NCBI GenBank assembly: GCA_028279595.1
Contig: JANQNK010000020.1
Span: 256,001 to 320,000 of the forward strand
DNA: 64,000 nt
From: Thermoplasmatota archaeon
GTDB taxonomy: Archaea; Thermoplasmatota; JAKEGO01
Direction of reading: 5' to 3'
Positions 15,615-23,249 of this stretch are shown here, in pieces. Position 1 is the stretch's first letter. Each line of letters starts with the position of its first letter. The notes under the pieces are model-generated. The model saw nothing but the letters and a program-made list of their open reading frames with translations. It did not search any database and had not been told where the DNA came from. Both the position numbers and the translations under genes were made by a program.

Positions 15615-16325
15615 CTATCTCGTCCTTCGCCGCCACCCTATGGTCGCGATCCCGACGACGGCGAGCATTGTCACGGCGATGATGAACCCGAACTCGGGTA
15701 TCACAGTCCCCGTGGTCTCGGCGGCAGTGCTGTTGGTCACGTAATGGTCGTTGGCATAGAACCTGTAGGTGTGCGTGCCGCCCCCTAGCTTGGTCTCGTA
15801 GTAGAACTCCGCACCGTTGGTGTAGTTCGTGTCCATGCCGTCCACCTGCATCATCGTGTGGTTCGTTCCGTCGATGTTGACGTAGACGAACATGGGCGTG
15901 TTATTGTTCTCATCGATGTAATCGACGGTGAAGTTGAACATCGTAGTCCTGTCCCCCGATGACGGGTCCATCGTCCCGTTCTCGAGCTCGGGGGGCGCAT
16001 TGACATTGACGGTCCCGGTCATGCTGGGGTGATACTCGCAGTAGTAGGACCAGTTGGCTGCCGAATTGAAGACTATGGAACCGGTTCCCCCGGATCCACT
16101 GATGTCACCCGTATCCCAGGCATCGTCGTCCTCTGTGGCCGTGTGGGTCGCCGAGTCGTTGTTTTCCCACGTGATCGTGTCCCCTACCTCGATCGTGATA
16201 TCCTCCGGCTTGAACTCGAATCCCTCGATCTCGACCCAGTGGGTCTTCGCCGAAACACCAGGCAGGACCAGCAGGGAAAAGCCCAGGATAAGCAGTACCG
16301 CTATCAACAATTTTCGTGATACCAT
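15615..16325 (-). CDS. Cupredoxin (plastocyanin/azurin-like) with PEF-CTERM sorting signal
   Basis: FKPEDITIEVGDTITWEN..HTAT..YYCEYHPSMTGTV type-1 Cu ligands; C-terminal IPEF + TM + RRRTR; AGGTGA SD before ATG 16325. Confidence 0.9.
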   Translation of the reverse strand: MVSRKLLIAVLLILGFSLLVLPGVSAKTHWVEIEGFEFKPEDITIEVGDTITWENNDSATHTATEDDDAWDTGDISGSGGTGSIVFNSAANWSYYCEYHPSMTGTVNVNAPPELENGTMDPSSGDRTTMFNFTVDYIDENNNTPMFVYVNIDGTNHTMMQVDGMDTNYTNGAEFYYETKLGGGTHTYRFYANDHYVTNSTAAETTGTVIPEFGFIIAVTMLAVVGIATIGWRRRTR

Positions 16326-16384
16326 TCCTATCACCTGTGACGGAAGCACGGCTGGAATGTATATCTTCATCCCCTAAATCGCGA

Positions 16385-17623
16385 TCATTCGATCATCGCA
16401 CGCGCGCCGCAATGCGGACACTGTATGACCGCCGGTCTCTCCCGGACCCTGACGATCAGCTTCCTCTCGCACTTGTAGCAGCGGATCAGGAACTCCTCCT
16501 GCTTCGGTCCGCCCACGGGTGCCTGCGAGAACTGTGCCTGTCCGGAGTCCTTTCCGCCTGTCACGGCTGCGCCACCTGCAGGCGCACCTCCAGGCGCGGT
16601 CCCACCGCCGCCGGCTGCTGCCGGTGCGCCTCCCCCAGCGGGTGCTCCTCCGGCCTCGCCTCCGATGGGCGCGGACGTGGTCGGTCCGCCTCCGCCCATT
16701 CCGCCGGTCTGGGCTACCCGGCCTCCCGATCCCGCTACGGGTGACGGGAGGGCGGATCCGTCGTAGGCCGCCTGTATGAGCTCCTTCGGCGGAGCCCTCT
16801 TGAAGACGTCGATGTGCTTCTTGACTATTGGATCGACGATGAACTGCTTGATCGCCAATGCCTCGTCGAGCTCGTCGAGGACCGCGTGATGATATCCAAT
16901 GAGCAACGCTTTGTCCTGCGCAAAGGACCTGAGGATCATCTTGGTCTTACCGCCCTCGCCCATGAGCTCGATGTAGGTCGCGAACTTCTCGGCGACGCTC
17001 TCGCAGTAGAAGCGGACCTTCCCGCGCAGTCCCATGGAGCTCCTCGCGATGGAGGGTTCGAGCATGAATATGTTAACACCCTTGAGGGTGTTGCCGATGA
17101 CATCGACGATCCTGTCGGCGGGGAGCGGGAGTGCTATCCTCTCCGCAGTGTTGATGAGTCCCTTTGCGACCTCCATCCATTCCGATGTGTCGATGGGCCT
17201 CGGGTAGACTATCGGAGCCTCGATCGAGAAGGATACCGGTAGGACCTCCTCCTCCCTCATGTGGTCGGTCTTGGGGTTGAGGAACTGAAGTTGGGATGAT
17301 AACGATACCTCTCCACATACATGGGCGGGCCTGAACTCGAGCTTGACGACCTCCGGCTTTCCCGGGAGCAGACGGGGTATCTTCGTCTGCGTCGTCATAG
17401 GAAGTAGTGACTGCGGGTGCCTGACCGAGATGAGGATGTCGTAGATCGGCCTCTTGACCGTGTTGACGAGCATGAGCATGTAGATGACGTTCGCACCCTC
17501 GAACCTGATTGTACTCTTCGTCTTGATCAGCTCCGAGCCTCCGCTCGTGAGGTCTCCAAAATCGGTCGGGTCTGCGATGTAGTCCTCGACGGTCTTGATT
17601 CCACCCTTCTCGTCACGAACCAT
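16385..17623 (-). CDS. Hypothetical protein: putative adaptin/coatomer appendage-like sandwich+platform domain, Gly/Ala/Pro linker, C-terminal zinc ribbon
   Basis: Long ORF with its own TATA box (~17688-17697); CYKC...CPHC. The appendage resemblance is by eye only (see findings). Confidence 0.6.
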   Translation of the reverse strand: MVRDEKGGIKTVEDYIADPTDFGDLTSGGSELIKTKSTIRFEGANVIYMLMLVNTVKRPIYDILISVRHPQSLLPMTTQTKIPRLLPGKPEVVKLEFRPAHVCGEVSLSSQLQFLNPKTDHMREEEVLPVSFSIEAPIVYPRPIDTSEWMEVAKGLINTAERIALPLPADRIVDVIGNTLKGVNIFMLEPSIARSSMGLRGKVRFYCESVAEKFATYIELMGEGGKTKMILRSFAQDKALLIGYHHAVLDELDEALAIKQFIVDPIVKKHIDVFKRAPPKELIQAAYDGSALPSPVAGSGGRVAQTGGMGGGGPTTSAPIGGEAGGAPAGGGAPAAAGGGGTAPGGAPAGGAAVTGGKDSGQAQFSQAPVGGPKQEEFLIRCYKCERKLIVRVRERPAVIQCPHCGARAMIE

Positions 17624-17825
17624 GCTGCGTCGATCCTCCGCCGGGGAACCGCCCCCGATACGTTACCGTATCCCTGAATATATCTAGGTTTATATAAATC
17701 CTTACCGCCCTCTCTCACCAACGACGGGGCTTATTTCACCATCGCGGGCCCTCGTTGCTGTTGTCATCGTGCAAAACAGGGCTGATTTTCCCGTTTAGTC
17801 CGGGGGTCTGGCCACCCGAACTTCT

Positions 17826-20800
17826 CTATTGTTTCTCCTTCCTTTCGGGATCCTCTTTCTCCTGCTTCTCGACACCCTCTTCCCATTCGGGTGTGGGGGC
17901 ACCCTCGTCCCCGGGTCCTGCAGGGGTCTCGCCGGGATCATCGCCGTCCGCCTTCGAACCCTCCCATTCCGGCGTTGCCTCGGGATCGTCGGAATCGTCC
18001 TCTGCGGAAACCTCATCCTGTTCGTCGCCGTCGTCCTCCCATTCAGGGGAGTCGACCGACTTCGATTCGTCCCGCAGGCCGTCGAGGTCCTCCTTCCTCT
18101 CGGGTCCCGGCCTCGCTCCGGGGACGGCCTTTTCATCCTTGTCCGGAGCCCTCATCGATCCATAGCGCTCGACGTGTCCGGCGTCCTCGAAGTCCTTGAT
18201 GTCGGGTCCCTCGTCCGGTTTCCGCGGCACGCCCATGGGGAAGTCGGGGCCTACATCGTCGGGTTCGCTGCCCGGGATCGGCGGTAACGGCTTGAGGCCC
18301 TTTCCGTCGTCCTCGACCTCGTCTTCGCTGTCCCCGTCCTTGGTCTTTTCCCACGCATCGTCCTGCGATCCCTTCGGCAGCAGCGCGCCGCACTCGGGAC
18401 AGCGATGGGATACGTTGTCCTCGACCTCGGACCTGCAGCGCGGACAGGTGACCTTGTTCGCCCTTGCCCTGATCTTCTTGAAGGCGCTCTTGTGCCTGAT
18501 GTAGACCACTGCAAGGAATATCACGACGATCACGAGGACCGCTATCATCAGGAACGGAACGAGGGAGCTCTCGTCCTTCTCCCCCTGCAGCTCGAGGGGA
18601 GCGAAGATCGTCAGATGAGTGACGTTCGCCCAGACGAAGTCGTTCTCGATGTCGACGCCGGTAAGACCCGCGATACGCCAATCCTCGTCCTCGGCATCCC
18701 AGTAGAACATGCGCAGTTTCTTTGCGCTGACACCGGAGGGAAGGTCGCCGTAATGCACCTCTATACTGACCCACGAGACGTTCGCATCGGGATCGTCGAT
18801 CTCGATGGTGAAGTAGAGTCCTATGTCGGTCCTATCACCGCCTGACGGGTCTGCGGTGGGGCCTACGTCCAACTCACCCGGGCCCTGGATGGATGCCCAG
18901 ACCACAATGTATCCATCCGTGAACGAGCTGTTGATCATGAGGATGCGGTCCCGCGTCACGACCGTCGCTGTGAGCGGTAATAACTCACTCCCTTTGGACC
19001 CGTTGTTGATACCGTCAGTTGCCACGATCCAGTAGTTGACCCCGGGCGGGACCACGGCATAGCCAGGAATGACGGCAGAGTAGGTGCCTGACAAGTGGTC
19101 CCCAGAGGTCCGATCCATTTCGATGCCAGCGAAACTGAACGGGTATCTCGGGTCCTCGTAGCGAAGCTCGACATATTGAACGAACCGATCATCGCCCACT
19201 ACCGCCGAAATCGTCAACGGTTCGCCGTGCGTCCAGTTGACCTCGGGGACATGGCTGATCCACGGCGCATCGGTGTCGTCCGGAGTAAGGACGTCCACCT
19301 CGTACGGGTCGCCCACCGGGTCAGTGACCGAGTTGCGACCGTCCGAGGCGATCATGTAGTAGGAGAAGTCGTCGGAGACATCCGAAGCAGGGATCGTCGC
19401 TTTGAAGAGGATCCCTCCGTACATTGGCAGTGTCTTCCATGATGAGCCCTTCCCGTAATAGAGCGTGACATTGTCGATCCCGATGTCGTCATACACATAT
19501 ACCGTGATGTTCACATCCACACCGGCCTCCGCCGATGTCACTGGTTCGTGGACGATGGCTGGGGGATTCCTGTCGACGGCCGAGAGGTCGATTGTGAAGT
19601 TCCTCTTCTCGGACGGTACCTCGAACCTGCCATCGCCGATCTCCACCCACCATTGGTAGGTGATGTTCTCAGTGAGATTGTATATGAATGTTGCCGATGA
19701 GTTGTGCTGGTGGACCTGCCAGACCTCGGTGCCGTTGTGATAGAGGAGCAGGCGGTTGCTGTAGGCGTCTCCGTCGGGATCGTAGGACTGCCACGCGAAC
19801 AGGACGGTGGTCGAATTGATGACAGCGTCGTCGGGCGGTGTCAACAGATCCACGGTCGGCGGATGGGGAAGGTCGGAGTTGTTCAGGGTGACGAGGGTAC
19901 CGAGGCTGTATCCATCGACGGACTGGTCGCTTGGAAGGAACCATACGTACAGTGTGCCACTGAACTCGGGGACGTCGTTGAGCGAATCCCAGACGAAGGT
20001 GTAATTCACCCCGGTTGCGTCAACCGGTAGGTCGTCGGTGTCATTCAGGATGGTACAGGGTCCGTATGTACTGTTATCGATGTGCCAACCGACGTAGACC
20101 GAAACCGGGTCCCAGTTCGCGTCCGCAATGGTCACGTTGAACCAGACCAGTCCCATGTCGACGTTCTTGTCGATGAGCTCGATCGTCGGCTGTTGCGCCA
20201 GTAACATGAAGGATATCCTCAATACCGGACCGGGACCCACGGTTTGTTTGACCTGTTCGCTTGCCCTATCCTTGACCGAGACGTTGTAGGTCTGGTTGTG
20301 AGTACCAGTGATGTTGTGAACGACGCCGGGCATGATGATCCATGGGCTCTTGCCCTTCGTGTCCGTCCGGGCTCCAGTTCCGCCATATCCGGGGGATGCA
20401 TGCATTACGGTATCGGATATCGTGTTCAGGACCTCGATCTCGGCGTCGCCGACCGGATTGGATGCAAGGGTGTCGTCGGTCACCATGACCTGGAAGTACA
20501 TCATCTCAGTGATCCAGCTGTAGTCGTGAATTGTCGCCCAATCCCAGGTCGAGTTGTATGTAAGCAGGTAGGAGCCCGACAGGTCCAACCTACCAAAGGA
20601 AACGTTGAAACCGGTGCCCATTGAATCCCTCAACGCGAAGTAATCGTCAATGCTCGAGTGCTCGATCCAGAAGGTGGTGTCCATCAGTTCGATGTCCTCG
20701 ATGATAGAATCCGAGATATCGATGTCGCTCTCATGGGCCTGTAGCTCGCACCACGCCATACTCAGTGAGGCGCCTTCGATATCGATGCCTTCGGAACCCA

Positions 20801-23249
20801 CTATCAGGATGTTGATGTCGGTCGCGTTCATGATTGCGAGGTTCGAGCTGTTTATCAGTGCAAGGTATCCATGCTCGCTGGCATCGATGTCATCGGTAGC
20901 GTTCATGTAATATCCGATGGAGCCTCCGTTCACTGTCACCGTCTCGTTGAAGTCGAGGGTGGTCATGTCGATGCTCTCTCCGTCCATCCACAGGTTGCCG
21001 ATGTCCGAATCCCTCATGACCAGCGTACCGAAGCTAACCTTGAGGTCGTCGGAAAGCACAGAACCTGTTATCTCGAGGGTTGAATCTCCCAACCAGGCAT
21101 CCCCCTCCAGACCGGAGTCGATGACCACGACATGGCTCGAGAAGTAGACCTGGGCCGAGTTGAACCCTCCCGTCATGTTCGAATCCTCTATCGTCAGGTT
21201 CGAGAACACGACCATGAAGCCACTTGGAACATCGACGAAATTGCAGCCTTCGACCATCACGTCCGCGAATGTCAGGTTGTACTGGCTCCCCCCTCGGAAA
21301 CTTACATCATCGAAGTTAGCCGACCCGGTTATGTCGAACCCATCCGTGTTGCGTATCTCACCGCCCGTCCAATTGACGTGGCCGCCCACTGACAGGTCCG
21401 CGCCGATCAACGACGTATCCATGAACTCGGCCGTCCCCGTGATATCGAGATCGCCCTCGATATCGATCATGTACAGCGATGCCGATCCCGGAATCGACAC
21501 CGAGTCGAACACTCCGATTGTCGAATTGCTCACGGATGAAACGGAATCGATCACCATCCGCTCGTTCTCGACCCATTCTACGTGGATGCCGTCCTCCATC
21601 AGCTCGAGGAGTTCGATCCGTGTGTTGATGGACCCGTTGAGGGTCAGGGCTTTCGATATGGTGCCCCCGTCATAGGTCCCGTTGAGAACGTGTATGGTAT
21701 CTCCTTCGGCCGCGTTGTCGTGCCCCTTCATCACGGTGTCGTAGGGGTGATCCATCGAACCGTTCATGCTCCCGTTCGCGTCGTCGTCGACGTAGATGTC
21801 CATCGCGTACGGTCTTGTGAACGTCTCCTGGCGGCTCAACTGCATGTTCAGGTCCCTCATCTCCGACCAAGGTCCGAGGGTCATGCCTGCGTCGATGTCG
21901 TGGAGCGTCATTCCCCCCATGCTCCGCGTCATGTACTTGACGATGACACCTCCGATGATACCTGTCGACCGCGTCTTGTCGTCGGTCCCGTTGTAGACCT
22001 CGGTGGAATATATCTTGGAACCATCCTCGATAACGACACCGTCGACCCCCTCGATGGGTCCTTCCGAGTTCTTCGCATAGAGCCAGAGGTAATTGTACAT
22101 CGTGAACGTCGATGTCGAGTCCACCGAGTGATTGTTATGTGTGAGATTGTAGGAGTTAACCTCCGACGAGTCGATGAGCTCCATGTCCATCTCGGTGACA
22201 TCAATGGTGGAGTTCGTTATGTTGCCCCATGAGGCTTCGTAGCCGATCCCGTCCTCCGATTCGTTCAGGCCGATATCGTAGATGTCGGAGCTCGAGTTCC
22301 GGAAGTAGATCGACGCGAAGGTTCCGTCGCACCTGTAGAAGGTCGTGTCCATAATGGTCAATGTCGCCATGTAGGTCTCCATGTGTCTCTGTACCGAGTC
22401 AACGAGCGAGCTGTTCACGATATCGACGGTACCCTCGGAGACGGTGATCCCGTCGGTGGCCCCTTCTATCGTGACGTTGTCAATGGTCACGTCAAAGCCT
22501 TCCGTGATCGGTATCCCGTCGGTGCAGTCCTGTATCAACGAGTCCTCTATGGTGACGTTGATGTTGTCCTTCAGCATGATGCCGTTGGAGGCCGAGTAGA
22601 TCTGTGCCCTCCTGACGATCGTGTCGTTGGTCTCCTTTGCGAGGTCGATCCCGTAGGTGCTCCCCGTGACCATCACGTCCTCGATGGTGACATCCTCGGA
22701 CTCGTAGATGTACATACTGAACAGGGACACACCGAGGACGCTCGAGTTCCTAACTGTCACGTTGGTAGAGCCTTTCACGGAAACGCCGCGCACACCGTTC
22801 GTGATGTCGATCTTGTTCATCAGCGCGGTCTCGGCACCGGTGATGTCGATCGCAGTCTGGGTTATCGTGGGGAACTCCAGGTCCCTGAGCCTGATGTCGG
22901 GGGCCGTGCAAAGGATGCCGAAATCGCCGTCCTGGACCGATATGTGGCTGATGGTCGCGTTGGCGCTGACGTCGAACACGGTCCCGACAACCTCGACCGC
23001 GGTCTCGGTGGTTCCGTTCCCGTAGATCGTGACCGATTTGTTGACGATCACATTCTCATGGTAGTTCCCGGCGAACACGTAGATCCAATCGCCATCGGTC
23101 GCGTTGTCGATAGCGCCCTGGATGTTGTCGTAGTCCGCCTTCGCCCAATCGTCGTCGACGATTATGACGTCGCCGCTGCCGACAGCGGCTACGGCTAAAA
23201 GCATGCTCGATAGGCACAGGAGTGCTAGAAATCCCCTCAACATGTGCAT
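17826..23249 (-). CDS. Large cell-surface protein: right-handed beta-helix (NosD/pectin-lyase-like) regions, Ig/FN3-like domains, single TM, cytoplasmic zinc ribbon and acidic tail
   Basis: Signal peptide; IIVDDD..YDNIQGAIDNA..G.Y.ENVIV and IYVDDD..G..DHPY.TV beta-helix caps; D..PP.I.H repeats; TM LVPFLMIAVLVIVVIFLAVVY; CPRC/CPECG. Confidence 0.85.
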   Translation of the reverse strand: MHMLRGFLALLCLSSMLLAVAAVGSGDVIIVDDDWAKADYDNIQGAIDNATDGDWIYVFAGNYHENVIVNKSVTIYGNGTTETAVEVVGTVFDVSANATISHISVQDGDFGILCTAPDIRLRDLEFPTITQTAIDITGAETALMNKIDITNGVRGVSVKGSTNVTVRNSSVLGVSLFSMYIYESEDVTIEDVMVTGSTYGIDLAKETNDTIVRRAQIYSASNGIMLKDNINVTIEDSLIQDCTDGIPITEGFDVTIDNVTIEGATDGITVSEGTVDIVNSSLVDSVQRHMETYMATLTIMDTTFYRCDGTFASIYFRNSSSDIYDIGLNESEDGIGYEASWGNITNSTIDVTEMDMELIDSSEVNSYNLTHNNHSVDSTSTFTMYNYLWLYAKNSEGPIEGVDGVVIEDGSKIYSTEVYNGTDDKTRSTGIIGGVIVKYMTRSMGGMTLHDIDAGMTLGPWSEMRDLNMQLSRQETFTRPYAMDIYVDDDANGSMNGSMDHPYDTVMKGHDNAAEGDTIHVLNGTYDGGTISKALTLNGSINTRIELLELMEDGIHVEWVENERMVIDSVSSVSNSTIGVFDSVSIPGSASLYMIDIEGDLDITGTAEFMDTSLIGADLSVGGHVNWTGGEIRNTDGFDITGSANFDDVSFRGGSQYNLTFADVMVEGCNFVDVPSGFMVVFSNLTIEDSNMTGGFNSAQVYFSSHVVVIDSGLEGDAWLGDSTLEITGSVLSDDLKVSFGTLVMRDSDIGNLWMDGESIDMTTLDFNETVTVNGGSIGYYMNATDDIDASEHGYLALINSSNLAIMNATDINILIVGSEGIDIEGASLSMAWCELQAHESDIDISDSIIEDIELMDTTFWIEHSSIDDYFALRDSMGTGFNVSFGRLDLSGSYLLTYNSTWDWATIHDYSWITEMMYFQVMVTDDTLASNPVGDAEIEVLNTISDTVMHASPGYGGTGARTDTKGKSPWIIMPGVVHNITGTHNQTYNVSVKDRASEQVKQTVGPGPVLRISFMLLAQQPTIELIDKNVDMGLVWFNVTIADANWDPVSVYVGWHIDNSTYGPCTILNDTDDLPVDATGVNYTFVWDSLNDVPEFSGTLYVWFLPSDQSVDGYSLGTLVTLNNSDLPHPPTVDLLTPPDDAVINSTTVLFAWQSYDPDGDAYSNRLLLYHNGTEVWQVHQHNSSATFIYNLTENITYQWWVEIGDGRFEVPSEKRNFTIDLSAVDRNPPAIVHEPVTSAEAGVDVNITVYVYDDIGIDNVTLYYGKGSSWKTLPMYGGILFKATIPASDVSDDFSYYMIASDGRNSVTDPVGDPYEVDVLTPDDTDAPWISHVPEVNWTHGEPLTISAVVGDDRFVQYVELRYEDPRYPFSFAGIEMDRTSGDHLSGTYSAVIPGYAVVPPGVNYWIVATDGINNGSKGSELLPLTATVVTRDRILMINSSFTDGYIVVWASIQGPGELDVGPTADPSGGDRTDIGLYFTIEIDDPDANVSWVSIEVHYGDLPSGVSAKKLRMFYWDAEDEDWRIAGLTGVDIENDFVWANVTHLTIFAPLELQGEKDESSLVPFLMIAVLVIVVIFLAVVYIRHKSAFKKIRARANKVTCPRCRSEVEDNVSHRCPECGALLPKGSQDDAWEKTKDGDSEDEVEDDGKGLKPLPPIPGSEPDDVGPDFPMGVPRKPDEGPDIKDFEDAGHVERYGSMRAPDKDEKAVPGARPGPERKEDLDGLRDESKSVDSPEWEDDGDEQDEVSAEDDSDDPEATPEWEGSKADGDDPGETPAGPGDEGAPTPEWEEGVEKQEKEDPERKEKQ

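Follow-up and report, generated by a model that had tools for sequence, protein, structure and literature searches.

Ear (appendage) domains are interaction hubs of eukaryotic vesicle coats, and adaptin ears bind multivalent aromatic-acidic motifs, e.g. DPW/FxDxF/WxxF repeats. Ears in archaea bear on the origin of membrane trafficking. In Methanosarcinales, an "adaptin appendage domain" (arCOG15284) has been described in Vps4/ESCRT-III/SPFH loci of the 'Meth_adaptin' type and showed an HHpred probability of 98% to 5NZR_B and 2IV8_A (Makarova et al. 2024, mBio 15:e00335-24, PMC10936438). Published members are WP_013898571.1 and WP_013898578.1 of Methanosalsum zhilinae; one member of the family carries a zinc ribbon and one is joined to a GOLD domain via a membrane linker (PMC10936438). 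Ear-containing proteins of Asgard archaea were noted in this work as well. The same authors proposed a role in membrane remodelling or sorting for arCOG15284 in Methanosarcinales, and that appendage domains date back to the last archaeal common ancestor (Makarova et al. 2024, PMC10936438). Here, we analyzed a stretch of 64,000 nucleotides (the window; contig JANQNK010000020.1, positions 256,001 to 320,000) from a Thermoplasmatota archaeon. According to the list of open reading frames (ORFs) and their translations, it encodes at positions 16385..17623 of the minus strand a soluble protein of 412 amino acids (aa; P0001), which consists of an ear, a hinge and a zinc ribbon.

Archaeal ears outside Asgard have already been known since 2024, and the window protein is a further example, from a new phylum and in a free-standing layout. 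The first-pass annotation of this DNA had presented it as a non-Asgard archaeal appendage module. The appendage fold is confidently predicted and the host, a Thermoplasmata archaeon, indeed lies outside Asgard, but the module is not new in view of the published Methanosarcinales family. Because the basic discovery was published in 2024, the value of the locus lies in testable details and not in a new kind of system. It adds a clear, high-confidence Thermoplasmatota example in the soluble ear-hinge-zinc ribbon layout. In Methanosarcinales and some Thermoplasmata, the same ear forms the inner tail of numerous surface proteins that are unrelated to each other. PEWE repeats in a neighbouring protein furthermore represent a concrete peptide candidate for a first test of ligand binding by an archaeal ear.

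Predicted fold and parts of the ear protein

The AlphaFold2 model of aa 1-290, built from an alignment of 89 sequences (A1), reached a predicted local distance difference test score (pLDDT) of 88.3 and a predicted template modelling score (pTM) of 0.83. It shows beta-sandwich strands at aa 33-134 and a helix/strand (alpha/beta) unit at aa 139-256, in agreement with the beta-rich unit followed by an alpha/beta unit that had been read from the translation. In a Foldseek search against the PDB, the top 16 matches were all appendage domains, with each alignment spanning 234-274 columns. The best match was the beta-COP appendage (9qpq_H, residues 711-953; E 2.7e-10), with which the first-pass annotation had also compared the protein. 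It was followed by gamma-COP (1pzd, 1r4x; E about 4e-9), the AP-2 alpha ear (1w80 and others; E 5e-8 to 3e-6) and the AP-2 beta2 ear (1e42, 2iv9; E about 1e-6), with BBSome subunits lower in the match list. The protein thus comprises a sandwich, a TBP-like platform directly following it and a colinear match of both subdomains to solved ears, as the first-pass annotation had suspected. Based on the model, the ear core (aa 30-262) is confidently predicted to be structurally equivalent to the appendages of beta/gamma-COP and of AP-2/AP-4 large subunits. In an independent search with protein-language-model features, which we take as a lead only, the named clusters closest to the protein were those of adaptin and coatomer appendages (score 0.86).

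With the ears of beta-COP, gamma-COP, AP-2 alpha/beta2 and AP-4 beta4 (9qpq_H, 1pzd, 1r4x, 1w80, 1e42, 2mj7), the window protein shares the order of an Ig-like sandwich and a TBP-like platform, a similar size, an attached flexible hinge and a near-invariant Trp early in the platform. This residue, W149, lies in the first platform helix and is Trp in 85/88 relatives; it may be the counterpart of the Trp in the ligand site of the alpha, beta2 and gamma-COP ears. The order of parts differs: whereas the eukaryotic hinge comes from a HEAT-repeat trunk and precedes the ear, the hinge of the window protein comes after the ear and leads to the zinc ribbon. Unlike the large subunits of adaptins and COPI, the protein has only 29 residues before the ear, no trunk and no heterotetramer context.

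All parts of the protein are encoded on the minus strand. A conserved acidic N-terminal peptide (aa 1-27, 17543..17623; GG.KTV..Y...P.DF..L) was delimited in an alignment of six orthologs, in which 12 of its positions are invariant down to 49% identity (M1, V2, G7, G8, K10, T11, V12, Y15, P19, D21, F22 and L25). It includes DFGDL (aa 21-25), of which D21, F22 and L25 are invariant while G23 varies (G/A/S). In the AlphaFold2 model, this peptide has a pLDDT of 46-57 and is not docked. The variable Gly and the undocked, low-confidence peptide weaken the suggestion of the first-pass annotation that DFGDL would be a gamma-adaptin-ear ligand (DFGxPhi). The ear comprises the Ig-like beta-sandwich subdomain (aa 30-135, 17219..17536) and the TBP-like alpha/beta platform subdomain with W149 (aa 137-262, 16838..17215). 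It is followed by a conserved helical extension (aa 263-289, 16757..16837; family motif K.[FY]I.D.I in alignments A1, A2 and A3), along which the pLDDT drops from 91 to 57. The low-complexity Gly/Ala/Pro hinge (aa 290-372, 16508..16756), read directly from the composition, differs in length and composition among orthologs; in the 49%-identical one it is Pro/Gln-rich and about 90 residues longer. The C-terminal four-Cys zinc ribbon (aa 378-412, 16388..16492) is defined by CxxC...CxxC at aa 382-405, with CxxC...CPxCG invariant in the orthologs, and by the only Pfam matches of the protein, which are weak zinc-ribbon matches (aa 380-409, E 0.015-0.1). ORF, linker, zinc ribbon and DFGDL are therefore all present as annotated at first.

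Five close homologs with 49-94% identity were found, and an ortholog that keeps the N-terminal peptide and the zinc ribbon is present in 3/3 species-level genomes of the source order. Scans of genomes and metagenome contigs with P0001, and of metagenome contigs with the ortholog alignment (A3), yielded no further close orthologs with flanking sequence. The homologs at these identities, the presence of an ortholog in all three genomes of the order and 133 more distant relatives show that the gene is real.

Relatives of the ear and their gene neighbourhoods

In an exhaustive phmmer search of 1.8 billion representatives, the ear protein gave 133 matches, 104 of them at E <= 1e-10 and all covering aa ~33-275. 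Architectures were counted on 135 representatives and Pfam domains on the 89 aligned relatives (A1). A membrane helix precedes the ear in 69/135 representatives, either after an ectodomain (54/135) or after a short N-terminus (15/135), and in 2/135 the ear comes first and is followed by a helix and an ectodomain. No helix was predicted in 44/135, and 20/135 are partial sequences. Mean net charge is +3.4 in the 15 residues behind the helix, compared to -1.1 in front of it, and the ear of the membrane-bound relatives is therefore cytoplasmic. The window protein, in which the same scan found no hydrophobic helix, is thus stand-alone as first described, but this does not hold for the family, where the ear is mostly the cytoplasmic tail of membrane proteins. 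Ectodomains include PEGA, CARDB, carboxypeptidase-regulatory-like, DUF2341 and other domains. Instead of HEAT/alpha-solenoid trunks, ectodomains, membrane helices, TPR or zinc ribbons are found in the relatives. Zn_Ribbon_1 matched somewhere in the protein in 43/89 aligned relatives; the A1 consensus closes with a CxxC...CxxC ribbon, a pattern that about half of the representatives show behind the ear.

A pattern scan of GTDB species genomes led to 50 ear loci, mostly from Methanoperedens, Methanosarcinaceae (Methanolobus, Methanococcoides, Methanomethylovorans) and anaerobic methanotrophic archaea (ANME-2), with a few from Thermoplasmata. Among 401 sampled Thermoplasmatota genomes, 45 showed an ear match, concentrated in few families. 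In one of these families (f16), 23/24 sampled genomes harbor a single compact ORF of ~281 aa matching most of the ear (e.g. G202:C62:2032-2607), which appears to be a minimal stand-alone ear conserved across the family. The Methanosarcinales ears (alignment A2) show three invariant or near-invariant cysteines in the sandwich (G-E-C-G-x-C ... C-P) at the equivalent of aa ~103-140, of which the window protein retains only the first (C103). They could represent a metal site or a redox feature specific to the Methanosarcinales branch. In the source genome, the ear profile matches only one other ORF (389 aa, on another contig; G000:C11:143326-143871, minus strand). It is matched twice, weakly (E 8e-8 and 4e-5) and solely by the sandwich part, and probably encodes an unrelated protein of tandem Ig-like units.

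The ORFs next to the ear genes in the 50 loci were clustered and representatives annotated. This revealed a recurrent module of an ESCRT-III-like gene, an MIT-AAA ATPase (Vps4-like) gene and a coiled-coil/winged-helix gene, and, in divergent orientation, an SPFH-zinc-ribbon gene with one or several ear genes directly behind it. SPFH genes occur in 26/50 loci and lie directly upstream of the ear gene in 22 of the 26; ESCRT-III-like genes (185-204 aa, weak Snf7 matches) are found in 16/50 loci and Vps4-like genes in 12/50. A helical protein unrelated to the ESCRT-III-like one ('F4', 115-184 aa) takes its position in six loci, two of them from Thermoplasmata. Four loci of Methanoperedens and ANME-2 (L004, L006, L030, L050) show a variant of the 'Meth_adaptin' layout: ahead of SPFH and the tandem ears, the places of the ESCRT-III-like and Vps4-like genes are taken by 'F4' and a coiled-coil protein of ~400 aa without a Pfam match ('F8'). 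L006 harbors four ear genes in tandem.

Using aa 28-280 as query, phmmer retrieved the ear proteins of Methanolobus and Methanomethylovorans loci at E 3.7e-31 to 9e-29, among them those of Methanolobus sp. ZRKC2 (L041, E 3.7e-31) and of a Methanomethylovorans locus (L038, E 5e-31). These loci contain MIT-AAA (Vps4-like), ESCRT-III-like, SPFH-zinc-ribbon and coiled-coil/winged-helix genes, i.e. the 'Meth_adaptin' layout, and on the basis of these matches the window protein belongs to the published arCOG15284 superfamily. The homology runs via the identically organised loci and not via the published accessions themselves. The window protein shares the two-lobed domain with the arCOG15284 members, and its C-terminal zinc ribbon is present as in WP_013898571.1. 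In contrast to the published members, the window protein stems from another phylum, is soluble, has a long hinge of Gly/Ala/Pro as well as a conserved N-terminal peptide of its own, and its gene does not lie beside SPFH, ESCRT-III-like or Vps4-like genes.

The source genome does encode an 'F4'-like helical gene overlapping an SPFH-triple-zinc-ribbon gene on the same contig, 58 kb from the ear gene and 11.5 kb beyond the window end (G000:C18:331549-333284; L070:7549-9284). The helical gene belongs to an archaeal family of all-helical proteins of 175-198 aa, with 390 relatives and without a Pfam model, found in 110/401 Thermoplasmatota genomes. Its SPFH partner (Band_7_1) carries three zinc ribbons, and the same pair precedes ear genes in other archaea. 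The modelled source copy of the helical protein (P0145, pLDDT 84.9) had no match in the PDB at E <= 0.001, so that an ESCRT-III/PspA fold could not be shown for it.

Proposed role and candidate partners

We consider it fairly probable that the window protein is a soluble cytoplasmic adaptor-type protein, in which an ear homologous to arCOG15284 is combined with a Gly/Ala/Pro hinge of about 80 residues, a zinc ribbon and an acidic N-terminal peptide. By analogy with eukaryotic ears, partner proteins or short peptide motifs would dock onto the ear at the inner membrane face. The zinc ribbon on its flexible hinge would serve as a tether or address module, common to the SPFH scaffold and to membrane-protein tails with similar ribbons, and in the source organism the ear would be a free subunit instead of a built-in tail. 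The DF..L peptide at the N-terminus could act either as a self-ligand or as a handle by which another partner takes hold. A role of the protein in a membrane coat we only infer.

A specific candidate client is found in the gene directly upstream on the same strand, 202 nucleotides (nt) away: it encodes a giant surface protein (1807 aa, 17826-23249, minus strand) whose acidic tail with [ST]PEWE repeats could be bound by the ear. This protein features a signal peptide, right-handed beta-helix/NosD-like repeats and many Ig-like modules. A membrane helix (18501-18560), a basic stop-transfer stretch and a cytoplasmic zinc ribbon like those frequent among ear proteins (18387-18446) lead to a Pro-rich disordered cytoplasmic tail of about 185 residues, delimited on the translation (17829..18386). 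The tail contains three [ST]PEWE motifs (SPEWEDD, TPEWEGS and TPEWEEG; 18036-18047, 17961-17972 and 17880-17891), spaced about 26 residues, and further DDAW, DFPMG, DFED and HVERYGSMRA; all these features lie on the minus strand. Of the four PEWE occurrences among all long ORFs of the genome, three are located here. As a general sorting tag, PEWE was ruled out, the motif not being common to other proteins of the genome. In a sister genome, where the whole region is colinear, the ear is 71% identical and the giant protein about 33%. The sister tail retains DAW, DF, HVERYxSMRA and TPE[WY]E, although overall identity is only 41% across the two aligned C-terminal stretches, which comprise membrane helix, zinc ribbon and tail.

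Several results weigh against the adaptor-type reading. Pfam matched nothing in aa 1-290, even with E values up to 1 allowed. Searching the PDB with a sequence profile returned a bacterial NEW3-like sandwich and weak arrestin matches only, no adaptins. The appendage families PF02883, PF02296, PF09066, PF07718, PF14806, PF08752 and PF16381 were not reached at gathering score by the ear protein, and none of the seven was among the 25 most frequent (of 121 matched) families in the 89 relatives. On this evidence, no Pfam family covers the ear in the window protein or its relatives. A likeness to eukaryotic ears is not detectable with sequence profiles, and the tie to eukaryotic appendages therefore rests on the predicted structure and on the published HHpred result for relatives. 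Global superpositions on solved ears gave a root-mean-square deviation of 13-14 Å, and the angle between the two lobes is therefore unlike that of the solved ears. An alternative is a generic likeness, in which a helix-grip domain happens to come after a widespread Ig-like sandwich of the CARDB/NEW3/TRAP-beta type, without a specific evolutionary or functional tie to coat-adaptor ears; the protein could then e.g. be a zinc-ribbon nucleic-acid binder. We regard this as very improbable. The surroundings of the gene also weigh against the adaptor-type reading: it lies outside any ESCRT/SPFH locus, among a giant beta-helix surface protein and cupredoxin-like, DUF4430 and DUF6580 genes. In the source genome, which is 86% complete, the Pfam models Snf7, MIT and Vps4_C matched nothing above cut-off; there was no Snf7, and one weak MIT match below cut-off lies outside the window. 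A tblastn search of this genome with the ESCRT-III-like, coiled-coil/winged-helix and Vps4-like neighbour families retrieved generic AAA ATPases only. Finally, only the sister genome shares the synteny of ear and giant protein, the 49%-identical ortholog sitting among unrelated housekeeping genes without such a neighbour, and the ear is not basic (net +1), so that there is no obvious charge match to the acidic tail.

These last points also bear on two more specific proposals about the partners of the ear. The protein could be a component of an SPFH/ESCRT-like membrane-remodelling or sorting system whose other components are encoded elsewhere in the genome; the zinc ribbon would then be the shared assembly module. 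This possibility, which we hold only tentatively, would be in line with the homologs that directly follow SPFH-zinc-ribbon genes (22 loci) or lie beside ESCRT-III-like (16) and Vps4-like genes (12), with two Thermoplasmata loci in which the helical protein is followed by SPFH and then the ear, and with the operon of helical protein and SPFH-zinc-ribbon in the source genome itself. The helical protein is also found in 24/45 ear-positive versus 86/356 ear-negative genomes of the phylum; however, it is far more widespread than the ear, the overlap is modest, the compared genomes are kin and its model matches no ESCRT-III structure. Likewise, 58 kb separate the ear gene from the SPFH operon, and neither a Vps4 with MIT nor Snf7 was found in the incomplete genome. 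A specific recognition of the [ST]PEWE (and DAW/DF) motifs in the giant tail by the ear is unlikely in our assessment. It would amount to a split version of the 'ectodomain-membrane helix-ear-zinc ribbon' proteins, acting like an adaptin ear on DPW/FxDxF motifs. Such a pairing would fit the adjacent genes, an arrangement kept in the sister genome, as well as a giant protein that has the membrane helix, the family-type zinc ribbon and an acidic tail while lacking the ear that is found there in relatives. It would also fit the near-uniqueness of PEWE to this tail and the survival of the tail motifs in stretches that have otherwise diverged. As the whole region is colinear in the sister genome, however, adjacency may be plain inheritance. 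Furthermore, a TATA-box-like element (TTTATATAAA, 17689..17698, minus strand; about 70 nt upstream of the ATG), as read from the nucleotides, suggests a separate promoter for the ear gene within the gap that follows the giant gene, and hence separate transcription. The ectodomains of two giant fused-ear proteins (P0017, P0052) showed no similarity to that of the giant neighbour, only the zinc ribbon aligning (E 0.006). When the complex of the ear (aa 28-280, with an alignment of 89 rows) and residues 160-290 of the tail of P0144 was predicted, the ipSAE (interaction score from predicted aligned errors) was 0.00 in two runs, below the mark, which counts neither for nor against the pairing. Similarly improbable is the further-reaching idea that ear and giant tail would form a prokaryotic pair of ear and short linear motif, with the platform or sandwich binding the [ST]PEWE repeats in the manner of adaptin ears. 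In this non-Asgard archaeon, such a pair would link a surface adhesin with a membrane scaffold of the SPFH/ESCRT-like kind.

Flanking sequence and downstream genes

The gap upstream of the ear gene also contains a GGAGG at 17635-17639 (minus strand), read from the sequence. On the other side, a gene for an exported cupredoxin/plastocyanin-like protein follows (251 aa, 15615-16370, minus strand; Pfam Copper-bind, 3.9e-9). Only 14 nt lie between the two genes, which are therefore probably co-transcribed. DUF4430 and DUF6580 genes are located beyond it. The cupredoxin-like protein ends with PEFG, a hydrophobic helix and RRRTR, which looks like an archaeosortase anchor of the PEF/PGF-CTERM type.
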